Source: Heptranchias perlo
Lineage: Eukaryota
Reading direction: 5' to 3'
Assembly: GCF_035084215.1 (NCBI RefSeq)
Contig: NW_027138796.1
Coordinates: forward strand, 372,001-436,000
DNA length: 64,000 nt
Part shown: positions 3,412 to 61,198 of the stretch, piece after piece
Numbering within the stretch: the stretch's first letter is position 1
Layout: every line of letters begins with the position of its first letter
The notes under the pieces: generated by a model
What the model was told of the DNA's origin: nothing
The model's input: the letters and a program-made list of their open reading frames with translations, nothing else
Database searches by the model: none
Translations under genes and position numbers: made by a program

Positions 3412-3687
3412 AACATAGGAACAGGAGTAGGCCATTCAGCCCCTCATGCCTGCTCCGCCATTTGATAAGATCATGGCTGATCTGTTATCTAGCTGCATAT
3501 ACCCGCCTTTGGCCCATATCTCTTAATACCTTTGGTTGCCAAAAAGCTATCCATCTCACATTTAAATGTAGCAATTGAGCTAGTATCAATTGCCGTTTGC
3601 GGAAGAGAGTTCCAAACTTCTACCACCCTTTGTGTAGAAATGATATCCCTTGCAAGTTTCTTTTCATACTCTCTTTTTGTAGCTCTT
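3412..3687 (-). mobile_element. CR1 LINE in intron 3 of copy 1, internally deleted
   Basis: Same two ends as the 1.88-kb intronic CR1 of copies 2-4, with about 1.6 kb removed at 3641-3642. Confidence 0.85.
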
Positions 3688-16400: not shown

Positions 16401-19400
16401 TTCAAAAAATTCAATCAGGTTTGTCAGGCACGACCTACCTTTCACAAATCTATGCTGGCTCTCCCTGATTAACTGAAAATTCTCAAGGTGTTCAGTCACC
16501 CTATCCTTAATTATAGACTCCAGCAATTTCCCCACAACAGATGTTAGGCTAACTGGTCTATCATTCCCCGGTTTCCCTCTCTCTCCTTTCTTAAAAAGCG
16601 GAGTGACGTGCAATTTTCCAATCTAGAGGGACAGTTCCTGAATCTAGAGAACTTTGAAAGATTATAGTTAGGGCATTTGCAATCTGCTCACCTACTTCCT
16701 TTAAAACCCTGGGATGGAAACCATCTGGTCCTGGGGATTTGTCAATCTTTAGTGCTATTATTTTCTTCATTACTGTTGCTTTACTTATGTTAATTTTATC
16801 GAGTCCCTGTCCCCGATTCAATATTAGTTTTGTTGGGATTTCCAGCATGCTATCCTCTTTTTCTACTGTAAATACTGACGCAAAGTAATTATTCAACATG
16901 TCCGCCAGTTCCCCATTGTCAATGACAATATCCCCACTTTCAGTTTTTAAGGGGCCAAACCTGCTCCTGACCACCCTCTTTTTCCTAATATAACTATAAA
17001 AGTTCTTCGTATTGGTTTTGATATCCCTTGCAAGTTTCTTTTCATACTCTCTTTTTGTAGCTCTTGTGAGAAGGGGCAGTGGTAGCTGCTGGGATGGGGC
17101 AGTGGGAGATGATGGGATGGGTCAGCGGGAGATGCTGGGAATGGGCAGGGGGAGTTGATTGGAATGGTCAGGGGGAGATGATGGGACTGGGCAGTGGGAG
17201 ATGATGTGATGGGTCAGTGGGAGACGATGGGAGAGACAGTGGGAGATAATGAGATGGGGCAGTGGGAGATGATGGGATGGGTCAGTTGGAGATGTTGGGA
17301 ATGGGCAGGGGGTGTTGATGGGAATGGGCAGGGGGAGATGATGTGATGGGTCAGTGGGAGACGATGGGAGAGACAGTGGGAGATATTGAGATGGGGCAGT
17401 GGGAGATGATGGGATTTGTCAGTGTTGGGAATGGGGAGGGCGAGCTGATGGGAATGGGCAGGGGGAGATGATGGGACGGGGCAGTGGTAGACTGTGGGAC
17501 TGGGCAGTGGGAGACTGTGGGAATGGGCATTGGGAGACTGTGGGACTGGGCAGTGCGAGATTATGTGACGGAGCAGTGGAAGACTGTGGGACTGGGCAGT
17601 GGGAGATGGTGGGACGGGGCAGTGGGAGATGATGGGATGGGGCAATGAGAAATGATGAGACGGGGCAGCGGGAGATGATGGGACGGGGTAGTGGGAGATG
17701 GTGAGAAGGAGCAATGGGAGATGATGGGAGAGGTTGTGGGAGATGGTGAGAAGGAGCAGTGGTTGCCGGTTCAATTAGGCAGTGGGAGATGATGGAGGGG
17801 TAGTGGGAGATGGTGAGAGGGGGCAGTGGGAGATGATGGGAGAGGTTGTGGGAGATGGTGAGAAGGAGCAGTGGGAGATGGTGAGAAGGAGCAGTGGGAG
17901 ATGGTGAGAAGGAGCAGTGGTTGCCGGTTCGATTAGGCAGTGGGAGATGATGGAGGGGTAGTGGGAGATGGTGAGAAGGAGCAGTGGGAGATGATGGGAG
18001 AGGTTGTGGGAGATGGTGAGAAGGAGCAGTGGGAGATGGTGAGAAGGAGCAGTGGTTGCCGGTTCGATTAGGCAGTGGGAGATGATGGAGGGGTAGTGGG
18101 AGATGGTGAGAGGGGGCAGTGGGAGATGATGGAGGGGTAGTGGGAGATGGTGAGAGGGGGCAGTGGTTGCCGGTTCGATTAGGCAGTGGGAGATGATGGA
18201 GGGGTAGTGGGAGATGGTGAGAGGGGGCAGTGGTTGCCGGTTCGATTAGGCAGTGGGAGATGATGGAGGGGTAGTGGGAGATGGTGAGAAGGAGCAGTGG
18301 TTGCCGGTTCGATTAGGCAGTGGGAGATGATGGAGGGGTAGTGGGAGATGGTGAGAGGGGGCAGTGGTTGCCAGTACACAACTTACCACCTTCCGTATGC
18401 GATCCAAGACCAGATCCACTATCTCCTTGCCGATGGAACAGTGGCCCCGTGCGTAGTTATTGGCCGCATCCTCCTTGCCGGTGATGAGTTGCTCGGGGTG
18501 AAAGAGCTGTCGGTAGGTGCCGGTGCGGACCTCATCTGGGGGCAGGGAACGGAGAGTTAAAAACCTGAATATGCATCATTTCAAGTATTTTGATACAAGT
18601 CTGGCCATTTTTCTGGGAACATCTCTCAGTCCTGGGACCACCACCTTTGATCCAGACTGGAAATCCCTGACTGTCCACAGTGACTGGAGTATTGGAGATT
18701 GGGAGGTGAGGGGGAGAGACGATTGGCCAAGCAGCTTCAACTGTCGAGATCTCATGACCAACCCAGCAGCTGGAAGCAGCAAACCAGGAGGATGCCAGGA
18801 GCATGAAGGCCGTGTTCTGCTGTCTCAGTTGGTAGCTGGTGCGACAAATTGATCAGAGGAGTCGCAGGTTCCATTTGTGGCCTGTGCTGGGTCAGCTGAT
18901 CTCAGCTAAGGTGGATATGAGCCCTGATATTAACCTCAGGACCCTGGGTGGGGGGTGGGACAGTAAACAATCCACCTGGGTACCTGCTGCTGTTCCTTAC
19001 CCAATAACTGCACCTGGCAAATGAGTGTATGTGGGGGATGGGGTTAAGGTGGGGACAGTACTGAGCTCACCTGTGATGGTGCCTGTGGTTGAATTGCTTG
19101 CAGGGACTCAATGTTTGGCCTAATACTTGAAAGAATTGGTGAAGCACCGGAGAGACACGTGGGCCAGTGGAACCAGATTCTGGTAACGGGAAACACCTTC
19201 GGGGGAGGAGGGGAGATACTTGGAGGGGCCAAGACTTGGTCTGTGAGAAGGGAGTTTGTATCAAACAGCAACAAGAGGTAGCAGAACAGTGCCTGTCTGT
19301 ATCAGGAGGAAGGACTGTACATGAGTAGGTGTATTGCAATGAGTTTAGTGACACACGACTAACCCATCAACAATCTCTCCCCTTACCGATCACAGTGGGC

Positions 19401-22602: not shown

Positions 22603-25600
22603 TGAGTGCAGCGGGGAAAGAGTGAGGAACTTGAGAGTTTGGTAAGTGTGGGAGTTTGGTGAAATGAGGGAAGGAGGTGCTCCTTTGCTTTGCCTTGCTT
22701 TTCCTAACTTTTTCTGCAGAGCGGCGGCTGACCTGAGCAGCAGCAGACCAAGAGCGGGGATAACTCGGAGCGCAGCAGGAGGTGGGAGCCGACCTACGGG
22801 ACTACAGGAATCGGCATCGGAGCGCAAATAAAGGTTGAGGCTCGAAGGCCTACACTCACTCGGAGCGCAGCAGGAGGCGGGAGTAGACCCAGCTGTCACA
22901 GGAGAGCAGGTAGGTGATTGGCTGCGAAGTGTTACAGCTGCTTTTTTTTCCCCTCTGAGTTATGGAATTGGGTAAAATTAAAGTAAAAGCTGGGAGCTTA
23001 AAAGAAAACTTAAACTAGTTTATTAACGAGAGTAATAAAACTATAAATAACTGGTTTTAAGGCTTGATTTCCTTTAGTTTAGTTAATAATCTAAAAACAG
23101 AGGCATGGCAGAGCAGCTCACACGCGTCGAAGGCACGGCCTGTGCCATGTGGGAACTCCAGGACGCTTCCCGTGTCCTGGAAAACCACATGTGCAGGAAA
23201 TGTTTCAGAGCTTGAGCAACACTGCAGTGCATCCGCGAGGCTGAGAGCTGCATGGATAGCACGTTTCAGGAGGTGATTACCCGCAGCTTAAGAGAGTGAA
23301 GGCAGAGAGGGACCGGCAGACAGCCAAGGAGGACCAGGCAGGTAGATCAGGAGTCTCCTGAGGGAATCTCACTCTCTAACCGGTATACTGATGGGGGAGA
23401 GGGTTCCCTGGGGAGTGCAGCCAGAGCCAAGACCAGAGCACCATGGGTGGCTCAGCTGTACATTGGGGGAGGAGACAGGTTGGGAGAGCAATAGTGAAAG
23501 AGGATTCTATAGTTAGGGGGGCAGACTGGTGTTTCTGCGGCTGCAGGTGTGGTTCCAGGATGGCATGTCGCCTCCCTGGTGCCAGGGTCATGGACGTCAC
23601 TGAGCGGCTGCAGAATATTCTGGGGGGGGGGAGGGTGAACAGCCAGAGGTCGTGGTCCATATCGGGACCAACGGCATAGTTAGATAGAGGGATGAGGTCC
23701 TGCAGGCAGAGTTTAAGGAGTCAGGAACGAGATTAAAAAGCAGCACCTTGAATGTAGTAATCTCCGGATTACTCTCAGTCTCACGCACCGGTGAGAATCG
23801 AAATAGGAGGATACAGCAGGTGACTGCGTGGCTGCAAAGGTAGTGCAAGAGGGAGGGCTTTAGATTCCTGGGGCATTGGGACCGGTTCTGGGGGAGGTGG
23901 GACCTGTACAAGCCGGACAGGTTGCACCTCAACAGGGCCGGGACCAATATCCTTGCGGGGAGGGTTGCTTGTGCTGTCGGAGAGGGTTTAAACTAGCTTG
24001 GCTGGGGGATGGGAACCTGAGTGTGGATTCAGATGGGGTAAAGTTGGAACTGGAAATGGAAGGCAGAAAATTAGTGAGTGAGTCTGGAAGGCAGAGGGAA
24101 CGAAGGTTAGAAAATAAACAGAGGAGTTTTGCAGTCCTTAAATGTATTTACCTCAATGCAAGGAGGAGAGGAAATAAGGCGGATGAGCTGAGGGCACAGA
24201 TAGACACGTGGCAGTATGATATCTTAACTATTACAGAAACATGGCTTAAAGAGGGGCAGGACTGGCAGCTCAATGTCCCTGGTTACAGCGTTTTCAGACA
24301 TGATAGAGAGGGGGATTAAAAAAGGAGGGGTGGCAATTTTGGTTAAGGAAACAGTTAAAGTTATGAGGAGGGATGATATTTTAGAAGGAGCATCAAATGA
24401 GGCCTTATGGGTTGAGCTCAAGAACAAAAAAGGGGCAGTCATACTCTGGGAGTGTACTATAGACCCCCAAACAGTCAGAGGGAGATAGAGGAGCAAATAT
24501 GTGGGCAAATTTCTGAGAAGTGCAAAGACAATAGGGCAGTAATAGTCGGGGATTTCAACTACCCTAATATTAACTGGGATACAAACAGCGTGAATGGTTT
24601 ATAGGGTGCAGAACTCTTAAATTGCATATAGGAGAATTTTTTTAGCCGGTATATGGCAAGCCCAACGAGAGGCAGGGGCAGTTCTGGATTTAGTTCCAGG
24701 AAATGAAGATGGGCAGGTGGAAGAAGTAGCAGTGGGAGAGCACTTTGGTGGTAGTGATCATAATACAGTTAGTTTTAGCATAGTTATGGAAAAGGACAAA
24801 GACAGAGCAGGAGTTAAAGTTTTCAATTGGGGAAGGCCAATTTTACTCAACTGAGAAGTGATTTAGCAGAAGTAAACTGGAAACAGCTACTTAAAGGTAA
24901 ATCCGTGTCAGAGCAATGGGAGACATTCAAAGGGGAGATTCAAGGGGTTCGGGCTAAACATGTTCCAACAAAGAAAAAGGGAGGGGCTGCCAAATCTCGA
25001 GCCCCCTGGATGTCAAGAAGCATTCAGGGTAAGATAAGGCAGAAAAAGCAAACCAATGATAGACACCGGGAACTCAATACTACGAAAAGCTCAGAGGAGT
25101 ATACAAAGGGCAGGGGTGAAGTTAGAAAGGAAATTCGGAAAGCAAAGAGAGGGCATGAAATAATATTAGCAAGTAAAATCCAAAGAAAACCCAAAGATGT
25201 TTTATCAATACATTAAGAGCAAGAGGATAACTAAGGAAAGATTAGGACCTATTAGAGACCATAAAGGTAAACTGTGTGTGGAGGCAGAAGATATGGGTAT
25301 GGTTCTCAATGAATACTTTGCATCTGAGAGAGGGATGATGCAGGGATTGAAGTTAAGGAGGAGGAGTGTGAAATATTGGATGGGATAAACATAGTGAGGG
25401 AGGAAGTATTAATGGGATTGGCATCTTTGAAAGTGGATAAATCACCAGGGCCGGATGAAATGTATCGCAGGCTGTTTAAAGAAGCCAAGGACGCTTTAAC
25501 AATCATTTTCCAAACTTCGCTGGATACAGGCATAGTACCGGAGGATTGGAGGACTGCTAACGTTGTATCGTTGTTTAAAAAGGGAGCGAAGGATAGACCG

Positions 25601-27000
25601 AGTAATTACAGGCCAGTCAGCCTAACCTCGGTGATGGGAAAATTATTCAAATCAATTCTGAGGGACAGGGTAAACTGTCATTTAGAAAGGCACGGACTGA
25701 TCAAGGACAGTCAGCACGGATTTGTTAAGGGGAGGTCATGTCTGACTAACTTGATTGAATTTTTTGAGGAGGTGACAAGGAGGATCGATGAGGGTAGCGT
25801 AATTGATGTAATCTACATGGATTTTATCAATGCTTTTGACAAGGCCCCACATGGCAGATTGGTCACAAAAGTAAAGGCCCATGGGATCCAAGGGAATATG
25901 GCAAGTTGGATCCAAAATTGGCTCAGTGGCAGGAAGTAAAGGATAATGGTCGACGGGTGTTTATGCGACTGGAAGGCTGTTTCCAGTGGGGTGCTGCAGG
26001 GCTCAGTACTAGGTCCTTTGCTTTTTGTGGCATACATTAACGATTTGGACTTAAATGTAGGGGCATGATTAAAAAATTTGCGGATGACACAAAGATAGGC
26101 CACTTGGTTGATAGTGAGGAGGAAAGCTGTAGACTGCAGGAAAATATCAATGGACTGGTCAGATGGGCAAAAAAGTGGCAAATGGAGTTCAATCCGGAGA
26201 AGTGTGGGGTAATGCATTTGTGGAGAGCAAACAAGGCAAGGGAATACACAATAAATGGGAGGATACTGAGAGGTGTAGAGGGAGTGAGGGACCTTGGAGT
26301 GCATGTCCACAGATCCCTGAAGGTAGCAGGACAGGCAGATAAGATGGTTAAAAAGGCATATGGGATACATTCCTTTATTAGCCGAGGCATAGAATATAAA
26401 AGCAGGGATGTTATGCTGGAACTGCATAAAACGCGAGTTAGGCCACAGCTTGAGTACTGCGTACAGTTCTGGTCACCACATTACAGGAAGGATGTGATTG
26501 CACTGGAGAGGGTGCAGAGGAGATTTACGAGGATGTTGCCAGGACTGGAGAATTTTAGCTATGAGGAAAGATTGGATAGGCTGGGGTTGTTTTCCTTGAA
26601 ACAGAGGAGGCTGAGGGGAGATTTAATTGAGGTGTATAAAATTATGAGGGGCTGAGATAGAGTGGATAGGAAGGACCTATTTCCCTTAGCAGAGGAGTCA
26701 GTAACCAGGGGGCATAGATTTAAAGTGATTGGTAGAAGGATTAGAGGGGAGCTGAGGAGAAATGTTTTCCCCCAGAGGGTGGTGGGTGTCTGGAACTCAC
26801 TGCCTGAGAGGGTGGGAGAGGCAGAAACCCTCAACTCATTTAATAAATACCTGGATGTGAACCTGAAGAGCCGTGACCTGCAGGGCTACGGACCAAATGC
26901 GGGAAAGAGGGATTGGGCTGGATAGCTCGTTCCTCAGCCGGTGCGGACATGATGGGCCGAATGGCCTCCTTCTGTGCTGTAACTTTTCTATGATTTTATG
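22603..27000 (+). mobile_element. Near full-length degenerate CR1 LINE (5'UTR, esterase ORF1, APE-RT ORF2)
   Basis: Fragmented ORF1 (EDSIVRG..LPGARV) and ORF2 (YLNAR, TETW, KSPGPD, FADD) with many stops and frameshifts; TATGA-type tail. Confidence 0.92.
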
Positions 27001-27798: not shown

Positions 27799-34849
<7,051 letters not shown>

Positions 34850-37139: not shown

Positions 37140-40100
37140 TGAGTGCAGCGGGGAAAGAGTGAGGAACTTGAGAGTTTGGTAAGTGTGGGAGTTTGGTGAA
37201 ATGAGGGAAGGAGGTGCTCCTTTGCTTTGCCTTGCTTTTCCTAACTTTTTCTGCAGAGCGGCGGCTGACCTGAGCAGCAGCAGACCAAGAGCGGGGATAA
37301 CTCGGAGCGCAGCAGGAGGTGGGAGCCGACCTACGGGACTACAGGAATCGGCATCGGAGCGCAAATAAAGGTTGAGGCTCGAAGGCCTACACTCACTCGG
37401 AGCGCAGCAGGAGGCGGGAGTAGACCCAGCTGTCACAGGAGAGCAGGTAGGTGATTGGCTGCGAAGTGTTACAGCTGCTTTTTTTTCCCCTCTGAGTTAT
37501 GGAATTGGGTAAAATTAAAGTAAAAGCTGGGAGCTTAAAAGAAAACTTAAACTAGTTTATTAACGAGAGTAATAAAACTATAAATAACTGGTTTTAAGGC
37601 TTGATTTCCTTTAGTTTAGTTAATAATCTAAAAACAGAGGCATGGCAGAGCAGCTCACACGCGTCGAAGGCACGGCCTGTGCCATGTGGGAACTCCAGGA
37701 CGCTTCCCGTGTCCTGGAAAACCACATGTGCAGGAAATGTTTCAGAGCTTGAGCAACACTGCAGTGCATCCGCGAGGCTGAGAGCTGCATGGATAGCACG
37801 TTTCAGGAGGTGATTACCCGCAGCTTAAGAGAGTGAAGGCAGAGAGGGACCGGCAGACAGCCAAGGAGGACCAGGCAGGTAGATCAGGAGTCTCCTGAGG
37901 GAATCTCACTCTCTAACCGGTATACTGATGGGGGAGAGGGTTCCCTGGGGAGTGCAGCCAGAGCCAAGACCAGAGCACCATGGGTGGCTCAGCTGTACAT
38001 TGGGGGAGGAGACAGGTTGGGAGAGCAATAGTGAAAGAGGATTCTATAGTTAGGGGGGCAGACTGGTGTTTCTGCGGCTGCAGGTGTGGTTCCAGGATGG
38101 CATGTCGCCTCCCTGGTGCCAGGGTCATGGACGTCACTGAGCGGCTGCAGAATATTCTGGGGGGGGGGAGGGTGAACAGCCAGAGGTCGTGGTCCATATC
38201 GGGACCAACGGCATAGTTAGATAGAGGGATGAGGTCCTGCAGGCAGAGTTTAAGGAGTCAGGAACGAGATTAAAAAGCAGCACCTTGAATGTAGTAATCT
38301 CCGGATTACTCTCAGTCTCACGCACCGGTGAGAATCGAAATAGGAGGATACAGCAGGTGACTGCGTGGCTGCAAAGGTAGTGCAAGAGGGAGGGCTTTAG
38401 ATTCCTGGGGCATTGGGACCGGTTCTGGGGGAGGTGGGACCTGTACAAGCCGGACAGGTTGCACCTCAACAGGGCCGGGACCAATATCCTTGCGGGGAGG
38501 GTTGCTTGTGCTGTCGGAGAGGGTTTAAACTAGCTTGGCTGGGGGATGGGAACCTGAGTGTGGATTCAGATGGGGTAAAGTTGGAACTGGAAATGGAAGG
38601 CAGAAAATTAGTGAGTGAGTCTGGAAGGCAGAGGGAACGAAGGTTAGAAAATAAACAGAGGAGTTTTGCAGTCCTTAAATGTATTTACCTCAATGCAAGG
38701 AGGAGAGGAAATAAGGCGGATGAGCTGAGGGCACAGATAGACACGTGGCAGTATGATATCTTAACTATTACAGAAACATGGCTTAAAGAGGGGCAGGACT
38801 GGCAGCTCAATGTCCCTGGTTACAGCGTTTTCAGACATGATAGAGAGGGGGATTAAAAAAGGAGGGGTGGCAATTTTGGTTAAGGAAACAGTTAAAGTTA
38901 TGAGGAGGGATGATATTTTAGAAGGAGCATCAAATGAGGCCTTATGGGTTGAGCTCAAGAACAAAAAAGGGGCAGTCATACTCTGGGAGTGTACTATAGA
39001 CCCCCAAACAGTCAGAGGGAGATAGAGGAGCAAATATGTGGGCAAATTTCTGAGAAGTGCAAAGACAATAGGGCAGTAATAGTCGGGGATTTCAACTACC
39101 CTAATATTAACTGGGATACAAACAGCGTGAATGGTTTATAGGGTGCAGAACTCTTAAATTGCATATAGGAGAATTTTTTTAGCCGGTATATGGCAAGCCC
39201 AACGAGAGGCAGGGGCAGTTCTGGATTTAGTTCCAGGAAATGAAGATGGGCAGGTGGAAGAAGTAGCAGTGGGAGAGCACTTTGGTGGTAGTGATCATAA
39301 TACAGTTAGTTTTAGCATAGTTATGGAAAAGGACAAAGACAGAGCAGGAGTTAAAGTTTTCAATTGGGGAAGGCCAATTTTACTCAACTGAGAAGTGATT
39401 TAGCAGAAGTAAACTGGAAACAGCTACTTAAAGGTAAATCCGTGTCAGAGCAATGGGAGACATTCAAAGGGGAGATTCAAGGGGTTCGGGCTAAACATGT
39501 TCCAACAAAGAAAAAGGGAGGGGCTGCCAAATCTCGAGCCCCCTGGATGTCAAGAAGCATTCAGGGTAAGATAAGGCAGAAAAAGCAAACCAATGATAGA
39601 CACCGGGAACTCAATACTACGAAAAGCTCAGAGGAGTATACAAAGGGCAGGGGTGAAGTTAGAAAGGAAATTCGGAAAGCAAAGAGAGGGCATGAAATAA
39701 TATTAGCAAGTAAAATCCAAAGAAAACCCAAAGATGTTTTATCAATACATTAAGAGCAAGAGGATAACTAAGGAAAGATTAGGACCTATTAGAGACCATA
39801 AAGGTAAACTGTGTGTGGAGGCAGAAGATATGGGTATGGTTCTCAATGAATACTTTGCATCTGAGAGAGGGATGATGCAGGGATTGAAGTTAAGGAGGAG
39901 GAGTGTGAAATATTGGATGGGATAAACATAGTGAGGGAGGAAGTATTAATGGGATTGGCATCTTTGAAAGTGGATAAATCACCAGGGCCGGATGAAATGT
40001 ATCGCAGGCTGTTTAAAGAAGCCAAGGACGCTTTAACAATCATTTTCCAAACTTCGCTGGATACAGGCATAGTACCGGAGGATTGGAGGACTGCTAACGT

Positions 40101-42335: not shown

Positions 42336-45300
42336 TTATTCTTCCTCCTCCGCCTTTCTGTCCAGCGCAGAAGAATCGACGGCCACCTCTTCGTAATCCT
42401 TCTCGAGTGAGGCCAGGTCCTCCCGTGCGTCCTGGAACTCCCCTTCCTCCAGCCCCTCCCCCACGTACCAGTGGACAAAGGCCCGCTTGGCGTACATCTT
42501 ATCGAATTTGAGGTTGAGGCGGGTCCAAGCCAAGGAAATGGCGGTGGTGTTGCTCAGCATACAGAGGGCACGCTGCACCTTTGCCAGATCGCCCCCTGGC
42601 ACCACCGTCGGGGGCTGGTAGTTGATGCCAACCTGTGGGAAAAGAAAATTCTTCAGATTTCAGTTGCACAGAAAGGAGCTTCAAAATCAGAGCTGTTGGG
42701 AACCACGTAACGATCAGAAAGATAAATTTTTGAATCAGTGTGTGTCTTTGTACAAGAACCCAGCTCTGGTTATTCACTGGGCTCTTCCCCCAGTTTTCGA
42801 GCCTCAGTTTCTGATGGATGGATGCTGTGTAATGAGGCCAGATTCCGGGGCTAATTCCTTTCTTTAGTTCATCTTTTCCAATGAGGCCTTGATTTTTCAG
42901 GAAGCCTTTTCCTTGTTCGAGCAAGGACTTCTCCTTGGACATTCAGGGCAAAAATCAATGATTAGAGCCTCAGAGGGAGCTATTGTTTGGGCCAGGAATG
43001 GGGGACAGCTTTTGACCCAGACTGAACAGACGTATTGTTCACGTGGGATATGAGATTGTCAGAATCCATGTTTCCCCAGAGCCCCATGGATTGAACACAA
43101 AACCCACACTTACCTTGAACCCGGTCGGGCACCAATCAACAAACTGGATCGAGCGCTTGGTTTTGATGGTGGCGATGGAGGCGTTGACATCCTTTGGCAC
43201 GACATCTCCTCGGTACAGCATGCAGCACGCCATGTACTTGCCCTGGCGGGGGTCGCACTTCACCATCTGATTGGCTGGTTCAAAGCAGGCGTTGGTGATC
43301 TCTGACACAGATATTTGCTCGTGGTAAGCCTTCTCGGCCGAAATAAGGGGGGAGTAGGTTAATAATGGGAAGTGAATGCGGGGATAAGGGACCAGGTTGG
43401 TTTGGAACTCAGTCAGGTCCACATTGAGGGCACCGTCGAACCGTAGTGACGCCGTGATGGATGACACCAACTGTCCAATGAGACGGTTGAGGTTGGTGTA
43501 TGTTGGACGCTCAATGTCAAGATTACGCCGACATATATCATAAAGGGCCTCGTTGTCGACCATGAAGCCGCAGTCAGAGTGCTCAAGGGTGGAGTGGGTG
43601 ACGAGCACGGAGTTGTACGGTTCGACCACCGCAGTGGAAATCTGCGGCGCAGGATAAACAGAAAACTCCAGTTTGGATTTCTTGCCGTAGTCTACAGATA
43701 GTCTCTCCATCAGGAGGGATGTAAAACCCGAGCCGGTCCCACCCCCGAAACTGTGGAAAATGAGGAAACCCTGGAGTCCCGTGCACTGGTCAGCCTGTGG
43801 GCAAAGAAGGTACAAAACATTAAAAGGGAGCAGGAAATGGAATCTATCGTCAAAGGACAGTGAACACAGGACAGGAGCAAAAGTACTGACCGTCCCTGGT
43901 GAGAAGGGGCAGTGGGAGATGGGGAGAAGGGAGAGTGGGAGATGGTGAGAAGGGGCAGTGGGAGCTGGTGAGAAGGGGCAGCGGGAGCTGTTGGGACTAG
44001 ACAGTGGGAGATGGTGAACATAGGAACAGGAGTAGGCCATTCAGCCCCTCATGCCTGCTCCGCCATTTGATAAGATCATGGCTGATCTGTTATCCAGCTG
44101 CATATACCCGCCTTTGGCCCATATCTCTTAATACCTTTGGTTGCCAAAAAGCTATCCATCTCACATTTAAATGTAGCAATTGAGCTAGTATCAATTGCCG
44201 TTTGCGGAAGAGAGTTCCAAACTTCTACCACCCTTTGTGTGTAGAAATGTTTTCTAATCTCACTCCTGAAAGGTCTGGCTCTAATTTTTAGACTGTGCCC
44301 CCTACTCCTAGAATCCCCAACCAATGGAAATAGTTTCTCTCTATCCGTTCCCCTTAATATCTTATAAACATCGATCAGATCACCCCTTAACCTTCTGAAC
44401 TCCAGAGAATACAACCCCAATTTGCGTAATCTGTCCTCGTAACTTAATCCTTGAAGTCTGGGTATCATTCTGGGAAACCTACGCTGCGCTCCCTCCAAGG
44501 CCAATATGTCCTTCCGAAGGTGTGGTGCCCAGAACTGCTCACAGTACTCCATGTGCGGTCTAACCAGGGTTTTGTATATCTGCAGCATAACTTCTGCCCC
44601 CTTGCACTCCAGTCCTCTAGATATAAAGGCCAGCATTCCATTAGCCTTATTGATTATTTTCTGCACCTGTTCATGACACTTCAATAATCGATGTACCTGA
44701 ACCCCGAAGTCCCTTTGGACATCCACTGTTTTTAATGTTTTACCATTTAGAAAGTACCCTGTTCTATCCTTTTTTGATCCAAAGTGGATGACCTCACATT
44801 TGTCTATATTGAATTCCATTTGCCACAATTTTGCCCATTCACCTAATCTATCAATATCCCTTTGTAATTTTATGTTTTCATCTTCACTGCTTACAATGCC
44901 ACCAATCTTTGTGTCATCGGCAAACTTAGATATGAGACTTTCTATGCCTTCATCTAAGTCGTTAATAAATATTGTGAATAATTGAGGCCCCAAGACAGAT
45001 CCCTGCGGGACTCCACTGGTCACATCCTGCCAATGTGAATACTTACCCATTATCCCTACTCTCTGTCGCCTTTCGCTCCGCCAATTTCCTAACCAAGTCC
45101 GTACTTTTCCCTCGATTCCATGGGCTTCTAACTTAGCTAACAGTCTCTTATGTGGGACCTTATCAAATGCCTTCTGGAAGTCCATATAAATAATATCCAT
45201 TGATATTCCCCTGTCCACGACTTTAGTCACTTCTTCAAAAAATTCAATCAGGTTTGTCAGGCACGACCTACCTTTCACAAATCTATGCTGGCTCTCCCTG

Positions 45301-48300
45301 ATTAACTGAAAATTCTCAAGGTGTTCAGTCACCCTATCCTTAATTATAGACTCCAGCAATTTCCCCACAACAGATGTTAGGCTAACTGGTCTATCATTCC
45401 CCGGTTTCCCTCTCTCTCCTTTCTTAAAAAGCGGAGTGACGTGCAATTTTCCAATCTAGAGGGACAGTTCCTGAATCTAGAGAACTTTGAAAGATTATAG
45501 TTAGGGCATTTGCAATCTGCTCACCTACTTCCTTTAAAACCCTGGGATGGAAACCATCTGGTCCTGGGGATTTGTCAATCTTTAGTGCTATTATTTTCTT
45601 CATTACTGTTGCTTTACTTATGTTAATTTTATCGAGTCCCTGTCCCCGATTCAATATTAGTTTTGTTGGGATTTCCAGCATGCTATCCTCTTTTTCTACT
45701 GTAAATACTGACGCAAAGTAATTATTCAACATGTCCGCCAGTTCCCCATTGTCAATGACAATATCCCCACTTTCAGTTTTTAAGGGGCCAAACCTGCTCC
45801 TGACCACCCTCTTTTTCCTAATATAACTATAAAAGTTCTTCGTATTGGTTTTGATATCCCTTGCAAGTTTCTTTTCATACTCTCTTTTTGTAGCTCTTGT
45901 GAGAAGGGGCAGTGGTAGCTGCTGGGATGGGGCAGTGGGAGATGATGGGATGGGTCAGCGGGAGATGCTGGGAATGGGCAGGGGGAGTTGATTGGAATGG
46001 TCAGGGGGAGATGATGGGACTGGGCAGTGGGAGATGATGTGATGGGTCAGTGGGAGACGATGGGAGAGACAGTGGGAGATAATGAGATGGGGCAGTGGGA
46101 GATGATGGGATGGGTCAGTGGGAGATGTTGGGAATGGGCAGGGGGTGTTGATGGGAATGGGCAGGGGGAGATGATGTGATGGGTCAGTGGGAGACGATGG
46201 GAGAGACAGTGGGAGATATTGAGATGGGGCAGTGGGAGATGATGGGATTTGTCAGTGTTGGGAATGGGGAGGGCGAGCTGATGGGAATGGGCAGGGGGAG
46301 ATGATGGGACGGGGCAGTGGTAGACTGTGGGACTGGGCAGTGGGAGACTGTGGGAATGGGCATTGGGAGACTGTGGGACTGGGCAGTGCGAGATTATGTG
46401 ACGGAGCAGTGGAAGACTGTGGGACTGGGCAGTGGGAGATGGTGGGACGGGGCAGTGGGAGATGATGGGATGGGGCAATGAGAAATGATGAGACGGGGCA
46501 GCGGGAGATGATGGGACGGGGTAGTGGGAGATGGTGAGAAGGAGCAGTGGTTGCCGGTTCAATTAGGCAGTGGGAGATGATGGAGGGGTAGTGGGAGATG
46601 GTGAGAAGGAGCAGTGGGAGATGATGGGAGAGGTAGTGGGAGATGGTGAGAAGGAGCAGTGGGAGATGGTGAGAAGGAGCAGTGGTTGCCGGTTCGATTA
46701 GGCAGTGGGAGATGATGGAGGGGTAGTGGGAGATGGTGAGAAGGAGCAGTGGGAGATGGTGAGAGGGGGCAGTGGTTGCCGGTTCGATTAGGCAGTGGGA
46801 GATGATGGAGGGGTAGTGGGAGATGGTGAGAGGGGGCAGTGGTTGCCAGTACACAACTTACCACCTTCCGTATGCGATCCAAGACCAGATCCACTATCTC
46901 CTTGCCGATGGAACAGTGGCCCCGTGCGTAGTTATTGGCCGCATCCTCCTTGCCGGTGATGAGTTGCTCGGGGTGAAAGAGCTGTCGGTAGGTGCCGGTG
47001 CGGACCTCATCTGGGGGCAGGGAACGGAGAGTTAAAAACCTGAATATGCATCATTTCAAGTATTTTGATACAAGTCTGGCCATTTTTCTGGGAACATCTC
47101 TCAGTCCTGGGACCACCACCTTTGATCCAGACTGGAAATCCCTGACTGTCCACAGTGACTGGAGTATTGGAGATTGGGAGGAGAGGGGGAGAGACGATTG
47201 GCCAAGCAGCTTCAACTGTCGAGATCTCATGACCAACCCAGCAGCTGGAAGCAGCAAACCAGGAGGATGCCAGGAGCATGAAGGCCGTGTTCTGCTGTCT
47301 CAGTTGGTAGCTGGTGCGACAAATTGATCAGAGGAGTCGCAGGTTCCATTTGTGGCCTGTGCTGGGTCAGCTGATCTCAGCTAAGGTGGATATGAGCCCT
47401 GATATTAACCTCAGGACCCTGGGTGGGGGGTGGGACAGTAAACAATCCACCTGGGTACCTGCTGCTGTTCCTTACCCAATAACTGCACCTGGCAAATGAG
47501 TGTATGTGGGGGATGGGGTTAAGGTGGGGACAGTACTGAGCTCAGCTGTGATGGTGCCTGTGGTTGAATTGCTTGCAGGGACTCAATGTTTGGCCTAATA
47601 CTTGAAAGAATTGGTGAAGCACCGGAGAGACACGTGGGCCAGTGGAACCAGATTCTGGTAACGGGAAACACCTTCGGGGGAGGAGGGGAGATACTTGGAG
47701 GGGCCAAGACTTGGTCTGTGAGAAGGGAGTTTGTATCAAACAGCAACAAGAGGTAGCAGAACAGTGCCTGTCTGTATCAGGAGGAAGGACTGTACATGAG
47801 TAGGTGTATTGCAATGAGTTTAGTGACACACGACTAACCCATCAACAATCTCTCCCCTTACCGATCACAGTGGGCTCCAGATCTACAAACACGGCTCGGG
47901 GGATGTGCTTGCCCGCCCCCGTCTCACTGAAGAAGGTGTTGAAGGAGTCGTCCCCACCTCCGACGGTCTTGTCACTGGGCATCTGCCCATCTGGTTGGAT
48001 CCCATGCTCCAGGCAATACAGCTCCCAGCAAGCATTGCCGACCTGCACGCCGGCCTGGCCAATGTGGATTGAAAGACACTCACGCTAAAGAGTGGAGAAC
48101 ACAGGATTATTTACACAGGTAGGAGGACAATGCTTTATACAGTCAGTGGAGGTGGAAGGGAGAAGGGTGTGTGGGCAGCAACACGTTCCATTACAGTAAC
48201 CTGTGGATCCCGTCCATTCCCTGTAGATCTCACCTGCTGCCTGCTGGATCCCTTCTGTCCCTGTGCAACGTTCCACTACCTGTAGACCCCACCCCCTTCC

Positions 48301-51330: not shown

Positions 51331-54300
51331 TGAGTGCAGCGGGGAAAGAGTGAGGAACTTGAGAGTTTGGTAAGTGTGGGAGTTTGGTGAAATGAGGGAA
51401 GGAGGTGCTCCTTTGCTTTGCCTTGCTTTTCCTAACTTTTTCTGCAGAGCGGCGGCTGACCTGAGCAGCAGCAGACCAAGAGCGGGGATAACTCGGAGCG
51501 CAGCAGGAGGTGGGAGCCGACCTACGGGACTACAGGAATCGGCATCGGAGCGCCAATAAAGGTTGAGGCTCGAAGGCCTACACTCACTCGGAGCGCAGCA
51601 GGAGGCGGGAGTAGACCCAGCTGTCACAGGAGAGCAGGTAGGTGATTGGCTGCGAAGTGTTACAGCTGCTTTTTTTTCCCCTCTGAGTTATGGAATTGGG
51701 TAAAATTAAAGTAAAAGCTGGGAGCTTAAAAGAAAACTTAAACTAGTTTATTAACGAGAGTAATAAAACTATAAATAACTGGTTTTAAGGCTTGATTTCC
51801 TTTAGTTTAGTTAATAATCTAAAAACAGAGGCATGGCAGAGCAGCTCACACGCGTCGAAGGCACGGCCTGTGCCATGTGGGAACTCCAGGACGCTTCCCG
51901 TGTCCTGGAAAACCACATGTGCAGGAAATGTTTCAGAGCTTGAGCAACACTGCAGTGCATCCGCGAGGCTGAGAGCTGCATGGATAGCACGTTTCAGGAG
52001 GTGATTACCCGCAGCTTAAGAGAGTGAAGGCAGAGAGGGACCGGCAGACAGCCAAGGAGGACCAGGCAGGTAGATCAGGAGTCTCCTGAGGGAATCTCAC
52101 TCTCTAACCGGTATACTGATGGGGGAGAGGGTTCCCTGGGGAGTGCAGCCAGAGCCAAGACCAGAGCACCATGGGTGGCTCAGCTGTACATTGGGGGAGG
52201 AGACAGGTTGGGAGAGCAATAGTGAAAGAGGATTCTATAGTTAGGGGGGCAGACTGGTGTTTCTGCGGCTGCAGGTGTGGTTCCAGGATGGCATGTCGCC
52301 TCCCTGGTGCCAGGGTCATGGACGTCACTGAGCGGCTGCAGAACATTCTGGGGTGGGGGAGGGTGAACAGCCAGAGGTCGTGGTCCATATCGGGACCAAC
52401 GGCATAGTTAGATAGAGGGATGAGGTCCTGCAGGCAGAGTTTAAGGAGTCAGGAACGAGATTAAAAAGCAGCACCTTGAATGTAGTAATCTCCGGATTAC
52501 TCTCAGTCTCACGCACTGGTGAGAATCGAAATAGGAGGATACAGCAGGTGACTGCGTGGCTGCAAAGGTAGTGCAAGAGGGAGGGCTTTAGATTCCTGGG
52601 GCATTGGGACCGGTTCTGGGGGAGGTGGGACCTGTACAAGCCGGACAGGTTGCACCTCAACAGGGCCGGGACCAATATCCTTGCGGGGAGGGTTGCTTGT
52701 GCTGTCGGAGAGGGTTTAAACTAGCTTGGCTGGGGGATGGGAACCTGAGTGTGGATTCAGATGGGGTAAAGTTGGAACTGGAAATGGAAGGCAGAAAATT
52801 AGTGAGTGAGTCTGGAAGGCAGAGGGAACGAAGGTTAGAAAATAAACAGAGGAGTTTTGCAGTCCTTAAATGTATTTACCTCAATGCAAGGAGGAGAGGA
52901 AATAAGGCGGATGAGCTGAGGGCACAGATAGACACGTGGCAGTATGATATCTTAACTATTACAGAAACATGGCTTAAAGAGGGGCAGGACTGGCAGCTCA
53001 ATGTCCCTGGTTACAGCGTTTTCAGACATGATAGAGAGGGGGATAAAAAAGGAGGGGTGGCAATTTTGGTTAAGGAAACAGTTAAAGTTATGAGGAGGGA
53101 TGATATTTTAGAAGGAGCATCAAATGAGGCCTTATGGGTTGAGCTCAAGAACAAAAAAGGGGCAGTCATACTCTGGGAGTGTACTATAGACCCCCAAACA
53201 GTCAGAGGGAGATAGAGGAGCAAATATGTGGGCAAATTTCTGAGAAGTGCAAAGACAATAGGGCAGTAATAGTCGGGGATTTCAACTACCCTAATATTAA
53301 CTGGGATACAAACAGCGTGAATGGTTTATAGGGTGCAGAACTCTTAAATTGCATACAGGAGAATTTTTTAGCCAGTATATGGCAAGCCCAACGAGAGGCA
53401 GGGGCAGTTCTGGATTTAGTTCCAGGAAATGAAGATGGGCAGGTGGAAGAAGTAGCAGTGGGAGAGCACTTTGGTGGTAGTGATCATAATACAGTTAGTT
53501 TTAGCATAGTTATGGAAAAGGACAAAGACAGAGCAGGAGTTAAAGTTTTCAATTGGGGAAGGCCAATTTTACTCAACTGAGAAGTGATTTAGCAGAAGTA
53601 AACTGGAAACAGCTACTTAAAGGTAAATCCGTGTCAGAGCAATGGGAGACATTCAAAGGGGAGATTCAAGGGGTTCGGGCTAAACATGTTCCAACAAAGA
53701 AAAAGGGAGGGGCTGCCAAATCTCGAGCCCCCTGGATGTCAAGAAGCATTCAGGGTAAGATAAGGCAGAAAAAGCAAACCAATGATAGACACCGGGAACT
53801 CAATACTACGGAAAGCTCAGAGGAGTATACAAAGGGCAGGGGTGAAGTTAGAAAGGAAATTCGGAAAGCAAAGAGAGGGCATGAAATAATATTAGCAAGT
53901 AAAATCCAAAGAAAACCCAAAGATGTTTTATCAATACATTAAGAGCAAGAGGATAACTAAGGAAAGATTAGGACCTATTAGAGACCATAAAGGTAAACTG
54001 TGTGTGGAGGCAGAAGATATGGGTATGGTTCTCAATGAATACTTTGCATCTGAGAGAGGGATGATGCAGGGATTGAAGTTAAGGAGGAGGAGTGTGAAAT
54101 ATTGGATGGGATAAACATAGTGAGGGAGGAAGTATTAATGGGATTGGCATCTTTGAAAGTGGATAAATCACCAGGGCCGGATGAAATGTATCGCAGGCTG
54201 TTTAAAGAAGCCAAGGACGCTTTAACAATCATTTTCCAAACTTCGCTGGATACAGGCATAGTACCGGAGGATTGGAGGACTGCTAACGTTGTATCGTTGT

Positions 54301-55726: not shown

Positions 55727-56526
55727 ACCCCCATCAATCAAGCCCCTTCAATCAGACCCCACTTCTCTCAGTCCCCATCAATCAGATCCCCAACAATCAG
55801 ACCCCATCAATCAGACCGGTGTGAGGACAACACAGTGTGCTGAGAGTTCGGTAAGTGTGGGAGTTGAAGGGTTAATCTCCTTAAATCTAGTGCATATTGC
55901 TTCAACTGTTTAAGGTCAATTTAAAAGTTTAAATTTCTAAGTTTCTGTCAGGCTTCAGCAGAGAGCTGCTGTAGCAAGTTAATTGGTTAGCTAGATTCAA
56001 TTTGGTACCTGAAGGTGGGGCAGGCCTGACTCATCTGAGTCTCAACTGTAGAAATACAGGGGCCTGTCAGTGCGGACAGCACGGTGTGAGGACAACACAG
56101 TGTGCTGAGAGTTCGGTAAGTGTGGGAGTTTGGTGAAGTGGGGGAAGGAGGTGCTGCTTTGCCTTGCTTTTCCTGCAGAGCGGTAGTGGACCTGAGAGTA
56201 GAAGACTGAGATTGTGGAATAAAAGCAGCAGCAGACCTGCACCAAGAGACCACTACTGTGCGACATCACAGGGACTTAACTCCTGGACCTAAGATAAATA
56301 AGAAGCAAAAAGTAATCCAAGTGGGACGTCACCAAGGAAGAGGTAAGTGATTGGCTGGTGAGTATTTTCCTGCTGAATTTGTCTAAGGTTAGAGTTTGTG
56401 GATTCTCTGGTCTCTGTTGTGTAGTGGGGGACTGCTGTTCAGCAAGGGCCCTTGAGTATACCTTTTTAATTGAAGTGAAATTGGTGGGATTCATTTAATT
56501 TGAATTAATTAGTTAAAGGGTAAGTC

Positions 56527-57477
56527 ATGTCAGGACAGCCCAGCCCCGTGTTATGCTCTTCCTGCTCCATGTGGGAAATCAGGGACCCTTCCGGTGTCCC
56601 TGACGACCATGTGTGCGGGAAATGTATCCAGCTGCAGCTACTGACAAACCGCATTGTGGCACTGGAGCTGCGGATGGATTCATTATGGAGCATTCACGAT
56701 GCTGAGAACGTCGTGGATAGCACGTTTAGTGAGATGGTCACACCGCAGGTAAAGGTTGTACAGGCAGGAAGTAATTGGGTGACCACCAGGCAGAGTAAGA
56801 AGAGCAGGCAGGCAGTGCAGGGGTCCCCTGTGGCTGTTCCCCTCTCAAACAAATATACCGCTTTGGATATTGTTGAGGGGGATGACTTATCAGGGGTAGG
56901 CAGCAGCAGCCAACTTCCTGGCACCAGGGGTAGCTCTGCTGCACAGGCTGGGAGGAAAAAGAGTGGAAGAGCTATAGTGGTAGGGGATTCTATCGTAAGG
57001 GGAACAGACAGGCGTTTCTGTGGCCGTAAACGTGACTCCAGGATGGTTTGTTGCCTCCCTGGTGCCAGGGTCATGAATGTCACTGAGCGGCTACAGGGCA
57101 TTCTCAAGGGGGAGGGTGAGCAGGCAGAGGTCGTGGTCCACATTGGGACCAACGACATAGGTAGGAAGGGAGATGAGGTCCTGCATCAAGAATTTAGGGA
57201 GCTAGGTAGCAGATTAAAGGGCAGGACCTCAAAGGTTGTAATCTCTGGATTACTCCCGGTGCCACGGGCTAGTGAGTATAGAAATAGGAGGATAGAACAG
57301 ATGAATGCGTGGCTAAAGAGTTGGTGCAGGAGGGAGGGTTTCAGTTTCCTGGATCACTGGGCCTGCTTCTGGGGAAGGTGGGACTTGTACAAGTCGGACG
57401 GGTTGCACCTGAACCAGAGCGGGACAAATATCCTTGCGGGGAGGTTTGCTAGCACTGTTGGGGGGGGTTTAAACTAA
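56527..57477 (+). CDS. CR1 ORF1p: zinc finger, coiled coil and SGNH esterase (316 aa, intact)
   Basis: CSSC..CGKC, heptad region, GDSI, HIGTND and DGLH blocks. Confidence 0.9.
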   Translation: MSGQPSPVLCSSCSMWEIRDPSGVPDDHVCGKCIQLQLLTNRIVALELRMDSLWSIHDAENVVDSTFSEMVTPQVKVVQAGSNWVTTRQSKKSRQAVQGSPVAVPLSNKYTALDIVEGDDLSGVGSSSQLPGTRGSSAAQAGRKKSGRAIVVGDSIVRGTDRRFCGRKRDSRMVCCLPGARVMNVTERLQGILKGEGEQAEVVVHIGTNDIGRKGDEVLHQEFRELGSRLKGRTSKVVISGLLPVPRASEYRNRRIEQMNAWLKSWCRREGFSFLDHWACFWGRWDLYKSDGLHLNQSGTNILAGRFASTVGGGLN

Positions 57478-60394
57478 CTTGGCAGGGGGATGGGATACAG
57501 AGTGGAGCTACAATAGGGGGTGATGTGCAGCCAAATATAGAGAAAAAAACAAGTCAGCTTGGAAGACAGGGCAAATATGTAAGGGCAAGGCTGGATGGCA
57601 TCTATTTTAATGCAAGGAGTCTTGCGAATAAGGTGGATGAACTGAAGGTGTTGATAAACACATGGGAGTATGATATTGTTGCTGTCACAGAGACATGGTT
57701 GAGGGAGGGGCAAGACCGGCAGCTCAATATTCCGGGGTACAGAATCTTCAGGCGAGACAGAGGGGGAGGTATAAGAGGAGGGGGGGTCGCAATATTAATT
57801 AAAGAATCAATTACTGCCATAAGAAGGGATGATATATTAGCAGGTTCCTCTAATGAGGCCATATGGGTGGAGCTTAAAAACAAAAAGGGGGCAAGCACTT
57901 TGATGGGAGTGTACAATAGGCCCCCAAACAGTCAGGGGGAGATCGAGGAACAGATATGTCGGCAAATCTCAGAAAATTGTGCAAATAATAGGGTAATAAT
58001 CGTGGGGGATTTCAACTTCCCCAATATTAACTGGGATACTCAGAATGTAAAAGGCTTAGAGGGTACAAAATTCTTAACGTGCATCCAGGAGAGCTTTTTG
58101 AGCCAGCATGTAGAAAGTCCTACAAGAGAGGGGGCGGTACTGGACCTAATTCTAGGGAATGTGGCCGGCCAAGTGGAAGAAGTGCTAGTAGGTGAGCACT
58201 TTGGTGACAGTGACCATAATTCGGTGAGATTTAAGGTGGTCATGGAAAAGGACAGGGAGGGGCCGGAAATAAAGGTTCTAAATTGGGGGAAGGCCGATTT
58301 TAATAGGATAAGGCAGGATCTGGCCAAAATGGACTGGGATCAGCTGCTTGTAGGAAAATCCGCATCGGAGCAATGGGAGTCTTTCAGAAGGGAGATTGAG
58401 ACCATACAATGGCAACATGTTCCCGTAAAGGTCAAGGGTGGTTCCAAGAACTCCAGGGAACCTTGGATGTCAGGGGATATACGAGAATGGATTAGGAAAA
58501 AAAGGAGGGCTTTTGGCAGATACAAAAGGCTAAAGACGGAGGAAGCCCTAGAGGAGTACAAAAAGTGCAGGGGGATACTTAAAAAAGAAATTAGGAGATC
58601 AAGGAGGGGCATTGAAATAACACTGGCGAGCAAAATAAAGGAAAATCCTAAGATGTTTTATAAGTATATTAAGGGTAAGAGGATGACTAGGGAAAAAATA
58701 GGGCCCATTAGGGACAAAAATGGCAATCTGTGTGTGGAGCCGGCAGATGTAGGAGGGGTTCTAAATGAATTTTTTGCATCTGTTTTCACTATGGAGAAGG
58801 ACGATGTAGACATAGAAATACGGCTGGGGGACTGTGATATACTCGAACATATTAACATCGAGCGGGAGGAGGTATTGGCGGTTTTAGCAGGCCTAAAAAT
58901 GGATAAATCCCCAGGCCCGGACGAAATGTATCCCAGGCTACTGTGTGAGGCAAAGGAGGAGATTGCGGGGGCTCTGACACATATATTCAGAACCTCTCTG
59001 GCCACAGGGGATGTGCCAGAGGACTGGAGAACCGCTAATGTAATACCATTATTCAAGAAGGGGAGTAGGGAAAAACCGGGGAACTACAGGCCAGTGAGCC
59101 TAACATCAGTGGTAGGAATATTATTGGAAAAAATTCTGAAGGACAAAATTAGTCTCCACTTGGAGAAGCAAGGATTAATCAGGGATAGTCAACATGGCTT
59201 TGTCAAGGGAAGATCATGTCTGACTAATTTGATTGAATTTTTTGAGGGGGTGACTAGGCGTGTGGATGAGGGTAACGCAGTGGATGTGGTATACATGGAT
59301 TTCAGTAAGGCCTTCGATAAAGTCCCCCACAGGAGACTGGTCAAGAAGGTACGAGCCCATGGAATCCAGGGTGCCTTGGCACTTTGGATACAAAACTGGC
59401 TTAGTGGCAGAAGGCAGAGGGTGATGGTCGAAGGTTGTTTTTGTGACTGGAAGCCTGTGGCCAGTGGGTACCACAGGGATCGGTGCTGGGTCCCTTGCTG
59501 TTTGTGGTCTACATTAATGACTTGGATATGAATGTAAAAGGTATGATCAGTAAGTTCGCTGATGATACAAAGATTGGTAGGGTGGTAAATAGTGAGGAGG
59601 ATAGCCTCAGTCTGCAGGACGATATAGATGGGTTGGTCAGATGGGCGGAACAGTGGCAAATGGAATTTAACCCGGAAAAGTGCGAGGTGATGCACTTTGG
59701 AGGGACTAACAAGGCAAGGGAATACACAATGAATGGGAGGACCCTAGGCAAGACAGAGGGTCAGAGGGATCTTGGTGTGCAAGTTCACAGATCCCTGAAG
59801 GCGGCGGAACAGGTAGATAAGGTGGTAAAGAAGGCATATGGGATACTTGCCTTTATTAGCCGAGGCATAGAATATAAGAGCAAGGAGGTTATGATGGAGC
59901 TATATAAAACACTGGTTAGGCCACAGCTGGAGTACTGTGTGCAGTTCTGGTCGCCACACTACAGGAAGGATGTGATCGCTTTGGAGAGGGTGCAGAGGAG
60001 ATTCACCAGGATGTTACCAGGGCTGGAGCGCTTCAGCTATGAAGAGAGACTGGGAAGATTGGGTTTGTTTTCCTTGGAGCAGAGGAGGCTGAGGGGGGAC
60101 ATGATTGAGGTGTACAAAATTATGAGGGGCACAGATAGGATGGATACTAAGGAGCTTTTTCCCTTCGTTGAGGGTTCCATAACAAGGGGACATAGATTCA
60201 AGGTAAAAGGCGGGAGGTTTAGAGGGGATTTGAGAAAGAACTTTTTCACCCAGAGGGTGGTTGGAGTCTGGAACTCACTGCCTGAAAGGGTTGTGGAGGC
60301 AGGAACCCTCACAACATTCAAGAAGCATTTGGATGAGCACTTGAAATGCCATAGCATACAAGGCTATGGACCAAATGCTGGAATATGGGATTAG
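57474..60394 (+). CDS. CR1 ORF2p: APE endonuclease and reverse transcriptase, one 1-bp frameshift
   Basis: ORFs 57525-59531 and 59483-60394 (YFNARS, TETW, GDFN, SDH, DFSKAFD, FADD). One G is missing in the run at 59466-59468 within SGVPQGS. Confidence 0.88.
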
Positions 60395-61198
60395 AGTAGA
60401 CAGGGCTGATGGCCGGCGCGGACACGATGGGCCGAAGGGCCTCTATCCGTGCTGTATGACTCTATGACTCTATGACTCTATGAATCAGACCCCATCGATC
60501 AGACCTTCATCAATCAGACCCCCATCAATCAGACCCCCATCGATCGGACCCCCATCGATTAGAGCCCCATCAGTCAGACCCCCATCAGTCAGACCCCCAA
60601 CAATCAGACCCCCATCGATCAGACCCCCATCAATCAGACCCCCATCAATCAGACCTTCATCAATCAGACCCCCATCCATCAGACCCCCATCGATTAGAGC
60701 CCCATCACTCAGACCCCATCAACCTGACCCCATCAATCAGATTCCAGTCAATCAGATTCCCATCTATCAGACCCCATTAATCAGACCCCATCGATCAGAC
60801 CCCCATCGGTCAGACCCCATCAATCTCACCCCATCAATCAGGCCCCAACCAACCTGACCCCATCAGTCAGACCCCATCTATCTGACTCCAATCGATCAGA
60901 CCCCATCCATTCTGGGTTCAGTGATCCTCTTCTAACTTCTAACGTCTTCTTTTACACGTGTTTCTCAATCCCTTGTCGTGTATTTGTGGCTTTTAAATTG
61001 ACACAATTTCAAAATCATTCAAAAATATTTATTTTCTTAAATATAATCTGTAACAACAATGTGAATTAAAGTCAAACCCCTTTTACTTTCTAAATAAATG
61101 CCATTTTGTAACATAAATGTGAAATTAAGTTAAACTTTTTACATTCTAAATTAATAAGTCATTTTGTAAACACTTTTTACTTTTTAAATGAATAAATC

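Follow-up and report, generated by a model that had tools for sequence, protein, structure and literature searches.

In the coronavirus IBV, ribosomes pass from ORF1a into the polymerase open reading frame (ORF) 1b, which lies in the -1 frame, at the slippery heptamer U_UUA_AAC, a sequence that a 2016 review places among the shiftiest heptamers on mammalian ribosomes (PMC5009743). Among retrotransposons that lack long terminal repeats (non-LTR retrotransposons), PMC5911963 states that -1 frameshifting is required for ORF2 of the APE-type Dictyostelium elements TRE5-A and TRE3-A, and SART1, a long interspersed nuclear element (LINE), gives a low output of ORF2 protein from a bicistronic RNA through UAAUG coupling (PMC3894237). 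Here we describe a nearly full-length CR1-type LINE at approximately 56085-60483 on the forward strand of a 64,000-nt stretch of Heptranchias perlo DNA (contig NW_027138796.1, positions 372,001 to 436,000; hereafter the window), in which the IBV heptamer lies in the same phase at the end of ORF1, upstream of an ORF2 in the -1 frame. The sequence of this element and its relatives makes it likely that vertebrate CR1 elements produce an ORF1-ORF2 fusion by programmed -1 frameshifting at the heptamer.

The CR1 site differs from that of the coronavirus in having an adjoining stop codon, a run of G residues in place of a structure and a non-LTR retrotransposon as its host. TRE5-A and TRE3-A are amoeba elements of another lineage, and SART1 and L1 differ from what we propose for CR1 in that ORF2 is made as a separate protein with no need for a slippery heptamer. 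In mammalian L1, ORF2 is reportedly reached by reinitiation. ORF2 of the zebrafish element ZfL2-1, studied by Kajikawa et al. in 2012, is reportedly translated by suppression of the ORF1 stop codon. ZfL2-1 and the esterase-bearing L2 elements share with CR1 the same esterase ORF1 (PDB 4C1B) and the same recoded ORF1-ORF2 fusion that we propose here.

A slippery heptamer at the ORF1/ORF2 junction

ORF1 of the CR1 element (56527-57477, forward strand, 316 aa) ends GGG GGT TTA AAC TAA, which places T_TTA_AAC (57468-57474), the predicted -1 shift site on the grounds of phase and conservation, in the X_XXY_YYZ phase and directly 5′ of the ORF1 stop codon (57475-57477; TAA here, and TAA, TAG or TGA in relatives). 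A second heptamer, G_GGT_TTA (57465-57471), overlaps the first. The -1 frame (TTT AAA CTA ACT TGG...) opens five codons upstream of the heptamer and is open from 57453 to 59531, across the heptamer and into the endonuclease. The sequence-only reading of this locus had described both heptamers and the open -1 frame, and the site is confirmed in each of these respects. We refer to this element as the young copy, to distinguish it from an older, decayed CR1 family approximately 73% alike to it that is present as three copies in repeated segments of the window. The older family carries the same heptamer at 23987-23993, followed by TAG, with duplicates recovered by block matching at 38524-38530 and 52715-52721 (all on the forward strand), and G_GGT_TTA is also present in both families.

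Under programmed -1 frameshifting, the majority of ribosomes would terminate and release the 316-aa ORF1 protein with its Leu-Asn end, while a minority would slip back one base with the Leu and Asn tRNAs on UUA AAC and the stop codon next in frame. Slipped ribosomes would read ...G-L-N-L-T-W-Q-G-D-G... through a linker into the endonuclease and reverse transcriptase, and the fusion product would be approximately 1290 aa long in an intact element. Frameshifting would set a high ORF1:ORF2 ratio, as in gag-pol frameshifting. The least certain step is the stimulator, which would probably be the adjoining stop together with a run of G residues about 10 bases downstream, and not a pseudoknot.

Within the window, a 30-base junction block had four perfect matches and was absent from all 100 shuffles, the search pattern having been drawn from these same copies. 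As the copies at 23984, 38521 and 52712 are duplicates with identical junction sequence, they and the young copy represent two families and not four. The two families are identical at 28 of 30 bases of the block, a value attained by 102 of the 3839 30-base segments compared between them (top 2.7%), and 60% identical in the linker that follows, which bears out the earlier description of a block kept in the older family with similarity falling after it. Where the two families share an esterase residue, the codon itself already agrees in 77 of 105 cases; the window by itself is therefore not enough to demonstrate selection on the heptamer, and the evidence for heptamer conservation from these two families is only suggestive.

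Conservation of the heptamer and stop codon in vertebrate CR1 elements

Junctions were judged by eye in the first 400 bases of each row of a published table of vertebrate consensus sequences (Supplementary Table 2 of PMC13343379). The pattern TTTAAACTA had 23 matches in the table, 17 of which were ORF1/ORF2 junctions, and a further junction was among the three matches of TTTAAACTGA. From their row prefixes, we take these 18 junctions to come from chimaera, sharks, rays, bowfin, teleost, coelacanth, frog, two crocodilians and lizard. All 18 have the sequence T TTA AAC followed by a stop and lie within the jawed vertebrates, in keeping with the conservation across CR1 consensuses to which the sequence-only reading had looked for confirmation. 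That reading had also named synonymous breakage of the heptamer as evidence against frameshifting, and synonymous or first-base variants of the heptamer gave no junction among the 45 matches listed (49 in total; double variants were not searched). Of the 102 Leu codons in the young element 14 are TTA, and of its 49 Asn codons 19 are AAC, so the uniform T TTA AAC is not a matter of codon habit. A separate search by an upstream esterase motif returned seven rows, with the heptamer in all six that reach the junction. The overlapping G_GGT_TTA is found in several shark and ray consensuses and is missing from the crocodilian rows, which read GCT TTA.

A motif search placed far from the junction returned 11 metagenome loci. 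The sole CR1 locus among them that holds the junction (L002) reads T TTA AAC TAG at 1125-1134 and has no ATG before its endonuclease motif. Five others (L001, L003, L006, L007 and L010) are cut before the junction or broken and L009 is decayed, while L004, L005 and L011 are L2-like esterase elements in which ORF1 ends without Leu-Asn. In L004 and L011, and probably in L005, which is open to the contig end, ORF2 follows in frame 0 after TGA, and in the first two it is open into the endonuclease; this arrangement points to readthrough and not slippage in these L2-like elements, which lack the Leu-Asn end, and it agrees with the stop suppression reported for ZfL2-1. The TGA codons of the three loci are followed by CAT, CAA or CTA. 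Such contexts resemble viral readthrough signals. Junction and esterase patterns were absent from the viral contigs and genome contigs searched, and no junction sequence was found in the supplements of PMC7140322 (file 1) and PMC2734521. Among the 40 differences listed, of 362, between related contigs and the window, none falls within 57465-57494, a sample too small to establish that this stretch is invariant. On the consensus and metagenome comparisons, the heptamer with its adjoining stop is a real and deeply conserved signal in vertebrate CR1 elements.

The same junction can be followed in protein records. A protein search with ORF1 gave 154 matches, 120 of which were listed, from sharks, rays, teleost, frogs, turtles and lizards as named, the nearest being those of sharks and rays. 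A C-terminal Leu-Asn was present in 87 of the 120. Where the protein ends 14-34 aa past the catalytic D-x-x-H, Leu-Asn is the end in 82 of 89 cases and the distance is exactly 26 aa in 81 of 89; the remaining 31 listed homologs have no D-x-x-H near the end and were left out of this ratio. An alignment of 38 proteins that are 30-70% identical to the window ORF1 shows no variation at L315 and N316, and the four residues that precede them vary. The residue before Leu-Asn matters because its codon supplies the first T of the heptamer. Residues with no T-ending codon (E, K, Q, M or W) occupy this position in 3 of 87 proteins, whereas the two preceding positions have them in 44 and 27 proteins, and after thinning to 70% identity the counts are 0 of 23, 11 of 23 and 8 of 23, respectively. 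We regard this shortage as weak and only suggestive support for the heptamer. One of the CR1 ORF1 homologs, P0008, is 64% identical to that of the window and is labelled a Pseudomonas aeruginosa hydrolase in public records; it is probably host DNA within a bacterial assembly.

On the ORF2 side, the -1 reading of TTTAAAC is Phe-Lys-Leu (FKL), which was found 37-108 aa before the endonuclease in 13 of 109 ORF2-type proteins; 28 others with at least 60 upstream residues lack it, many of them apparently chimeric gene models. Two ray gene models run continuously from the esterase through FKL into ORF2. The only nucleotide sequence that encodes both Leu-Asn and, in the alternate frame, FKL is T TTA AAY.

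A linker without stops in the -1 frame alone

The variable linker between the heptamer and the endonuclease (57474-57602, forward strand) is 45 codons long in the young family, 54 in the old family and 33 in L002. The -1 frame is free of stop codons in all three, and the other two frames contain one to six; in the young copy the counts are 0, 4 and 2 in frames -1, 0 and +1. Shuffled linkers were open in 7% of cases for the young family, 1-2% for the old family and 18% for L002. A linker open only in the -1 frame is the pattern that fusion at the heptamer predicts. Upstream of the heptamer, only five codons of the -1 frame are open in both the young copy and L002, leaving almost no space for an upstream start, and in the young copy these five codons include neither an ATG nor a listed near-cognate start. 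The first in-frame ATG of the young copy is at 57903, 145 codons past the heptamer and approximately 100 codons into the endonuclease, whose Pfam match begins at codon 47.

A G-rich stretch downstream of the heptamer

A candidate stimulator is the G-rich stretch at 57481-57494 (forward strand), made up of GG, G5 and G3, which begins six bases past the heptamer (GG, 57481) with its G5 ten bases past (57485). By eye, 14 of the 18 consensus junctions have a run of at least four G residues that starts 4-14 bases past the heptamer, and the run starts at base 11 after the heptamer in both window families and in L002. Contigs of other subfamilies lose their match to the window at 57494-57495, just past the run. 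ViennaRNA folds of 40 bases gave a two-tier G-quadruplex in both window families and not in L002, at a level not above that of shuffles. The G-run may be a weak quadruplex or a protein-binding site, or it may simply encode Gly-Asp-Gly. In the older family the run at 23999-24015 can pair at 15 positions with the 3′ untranslated region (UTR) of the same element (26920-26945), a pairing that the young family lacks and that we attribute to chance.

Frameshifting in the arteriviruses offers a comparison, as its motif lies approximately ten bases past the shift site. That motif is a short sequence of low complexity and not a structure, and the shift is stimulated by nsp1beta together with poly(C)-binding protein (PMC5009743). 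The arterivirus motif is C-rich and has a viral activator, whereas that of CR1 is G-rich and has no known activator. We suggest only tentatively that all esterase-bearing CR1 elements of jawed vertebrates share one ancestral -1 site driven by the adjoining stop and G-run and not by a pseudoknot.

Evidence against frameshifting and alternative routes to ORF2

Several observations count against frameshifting. Shifting at a heptamer that lacks a stimulator is usually slight, and no downstream hairpin stabler than shuffles was found in three lineages (z from -0.6 to +1.1) with a folding method that cannot model pseudoknots, although no stable first stem appears. No Rfam frameshift element matched at the site, the one weak match elsewhere being due to chance, and the G-run is absent from 4 of the 18 consensus junctions. 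As no structural stimulator of the kind expected 5-9 bases downstream (a stable stem-loop or pseudoknot) was found, the site, which would work as a viral -1 site does, is not classed here as a coronavirus-type element; of that earlier label the identical heptamer stands, without the stem-loop or the Rfam element, and of the G-tracts proposed as stimulator the GG six bases past the heptamer stands, with no stem-loop stimulator to accompany it. Common descent links the consensus rows, and the main tally of junctions was obtained by searching for the heptamer itself; the query for ORF2-type proteins carried FKL. Metagenome locus L008, which looks L2-like and decayed, ends CTG AAC TAG without the heptamer, 34 aa past the esterase motif. 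The heptamer is also broken in P0265, which reads FEL, and in three proteins with Glu before Leu-Asn, all possibly decayed copies, and E, K, Q, M and W are also scarce at other helix positions of ORF1. Finally, some elements have AUG codons close to the junction: in the older family an ATG at 24056-24058 is in frame, 24 codons past the heptamer and ahead of the endonuclease; an AUG overlaps the stop (TAATG) in 3 of the 18 consensus junctions, being absent in both window families and in L002; and 3 of the 13 FKL-bearing proteins have an in-frame Met no more than six codons from FKL. The claim that ORF2 lacks an AUG therefore holds for the young copy, with its first ATG inside the APE domain, and fails for the older family and some relatives.

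These AUG codons are what termination-reinitiation would use, the main rival reading, in which ribosomes resume translation in the -1 frame, at an AUG close by where one exists or at a non-AUG codon, and make a separate ORF2 protein. AUG-independent translation of ORF2 has been reported for L1. Reinitiation has a precedent in the UAAUG of SART1 (PMC3894237), to which the three TAATG junctions can be likened, and it would also suit the Met four to six codons past the F of FKL in P0132, P0192, P0217 and P0263 and the gene models that start MKGE. Nevertheless we think it an unlikely general explanation: no start or near-cognate codon occupies a conserved position, the two codons after FKL being ACT TGG, GCT TGG, AGC CCG or GGT TCG depending on the family, and the T TTA AAC present at every one of the 18 junctions is left unexplained. 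Reinitiation may operate alongside frameshifting in the AUG-bearing families.

It is very improbable that the letters of the heptamer are kept for a reason that leaves the reading frame unaffected, either because the esterase requires Leu-Asn or because the palindrome TTTAAA is a DNA or RNA signal. Such a role would fit the invariance of Leu-Asn at the protein level, the presence of TTTAAACTA in two shark 5′ UTR rows as well, and the conservation of the window block, which is no better than that of several catalytic stretches. A need for the two residues would, however, permit six Leu and two Asn codons, in conflict with the lack of junctions among the variant matches seen, and the L2-type esterases of L004, L005 and L011 end without Leu-Asn; moreover, ORF2 of the AUG-less families would have no way to start. 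Splicing to an acceptor at the junction of the young copy is hardly credible, since the branch-point-like ACTAAC followed by CAG (AG at 57484-57485, within the block) and the donor-like motifs of the 5′ UTR are set against an older family that reads CTGG at this place and has its nearest AG (in TAG) in another codon phase, a 5′ UTR with no ATG to donate, and a contig, taken from a run that may be RNA, that spans the junction ungapped, with no joint of that run there among the 15 listed of 42.

Programmed -1 frameshifting, as put forward by the sequence-only reading, is supported by the conserved heptamer and stop, the open -1 frame and the lack of a conserved start codon, and no rival accounts for the comparative evidence as well.

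Structure of the CR1 element and the rest of the window

The 5′ UTR of the young copy extends from approximately 56085 to 56526 (forward strand), and there is no ATG in 55820-56526. It contains four splice-donor-like motifs (56115, 56342, 56357 and 56519), the last of which adjoins the start of ORF1; similar motifs occur in the consensus rows for the 5′ UTR of other shark CR1 elements. A 46-base block of its 5′ end (56085-56130) is repeated 265 bases upstream (55820-55865), so that its true 5′ end may be near 55817. ORF1 encodes a cysteine-rich N-terminus and an SGNH esterase (Pfam Lipase_GDSL_2, E 1.6e-15) ahead of the Leu-Asn-stop end, and its sole solved relative is the ORF1 esterase PDB 4C1B (E 5.1e-29). 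ORF2 contains the APE endonuclease domain (57606-58217) and the reverse transcriptase with the C-terminal part (59064-60394), with a single frame break in this copy between 59447 and 59531. The 3′ UTR (60395-60483) ends in a short 8-base repeat tail; all of these features are on the forward strand.

The element was classed as CR1 on the basis of an ORF2 with APE and reverse transcriptase domains, an esterase-type ORF1 and a short-repeat 3′ tail without poly(A), and by eye its junction and ORF1 closely resemble the CR1-labelled rows of the consensus table. An esterase-type ORF1 is described for vertebrate CR1 in PMC13343379. A third CR1 family, 5′-truncated and 65% alike, lies on the reverse strand at 15363-16588, 29684-30909 and 44198-45421, without the ORF1/ORF2 junction. 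For the most part, the window consists of tandem units of approximately 14.3-14.5 kb, each with the same decayed retroelements and with exons that, from their translation, we take to be alpha-tubulin-like (reverse strand, 2434-3435, 14181-15161, 28502-29482 and 43039-44040). Fragments at 10813-11874 resemble, in translation, a Penelope-type element, with the end of a reverse transcriptase and a GIY-YIG-like domain.

Implications for CR1 translation

The translation of LINE ORF2 has been termed an interesting and important open question, and the available part of the 2013 review that says so lists stop-start coupling, reinitiation and internal ribosome entry site models, with frameshifting not among them (PMC3894237). 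Our literature search found no statement of frameshifting in CR1, which Haas 1997, Kajikawa 1997 or Kapitonov and Jurka 2003 may already suggest; the word 'frameshift' is absent from the main text of PMC13343379, the passages that came up in a report on the chicken deal with retroviruses, and CR1 is not named in the available part of PMC5009743.

The conserved shift site predicts a fused esterase-endonuclease-reverse transcriptase protein, unlike the situation in human L1. If CR1 elements do use it, the annotation of CR1 ORF2 and the design of active CR1 constructs would change, for a group that predominates among the retrotransposons of most vertebrate species (PMC13343379). A G-run acting as a natural stimulator would merit attention in its own right: quadruplex-stimulated frameshifting was known only from synthetic constructs according to the 2016 review (PMC5009743), and an ancestral site made up of the stop and G-run would, if real, be a natural G-quadruplex- or protein-triggered frameshift. 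Together with stop codon readthrough in L2, such frameshifting in CR1 would mean that esterase-bearing LINEs as a rule produce a Gag-Pol-like fusion.

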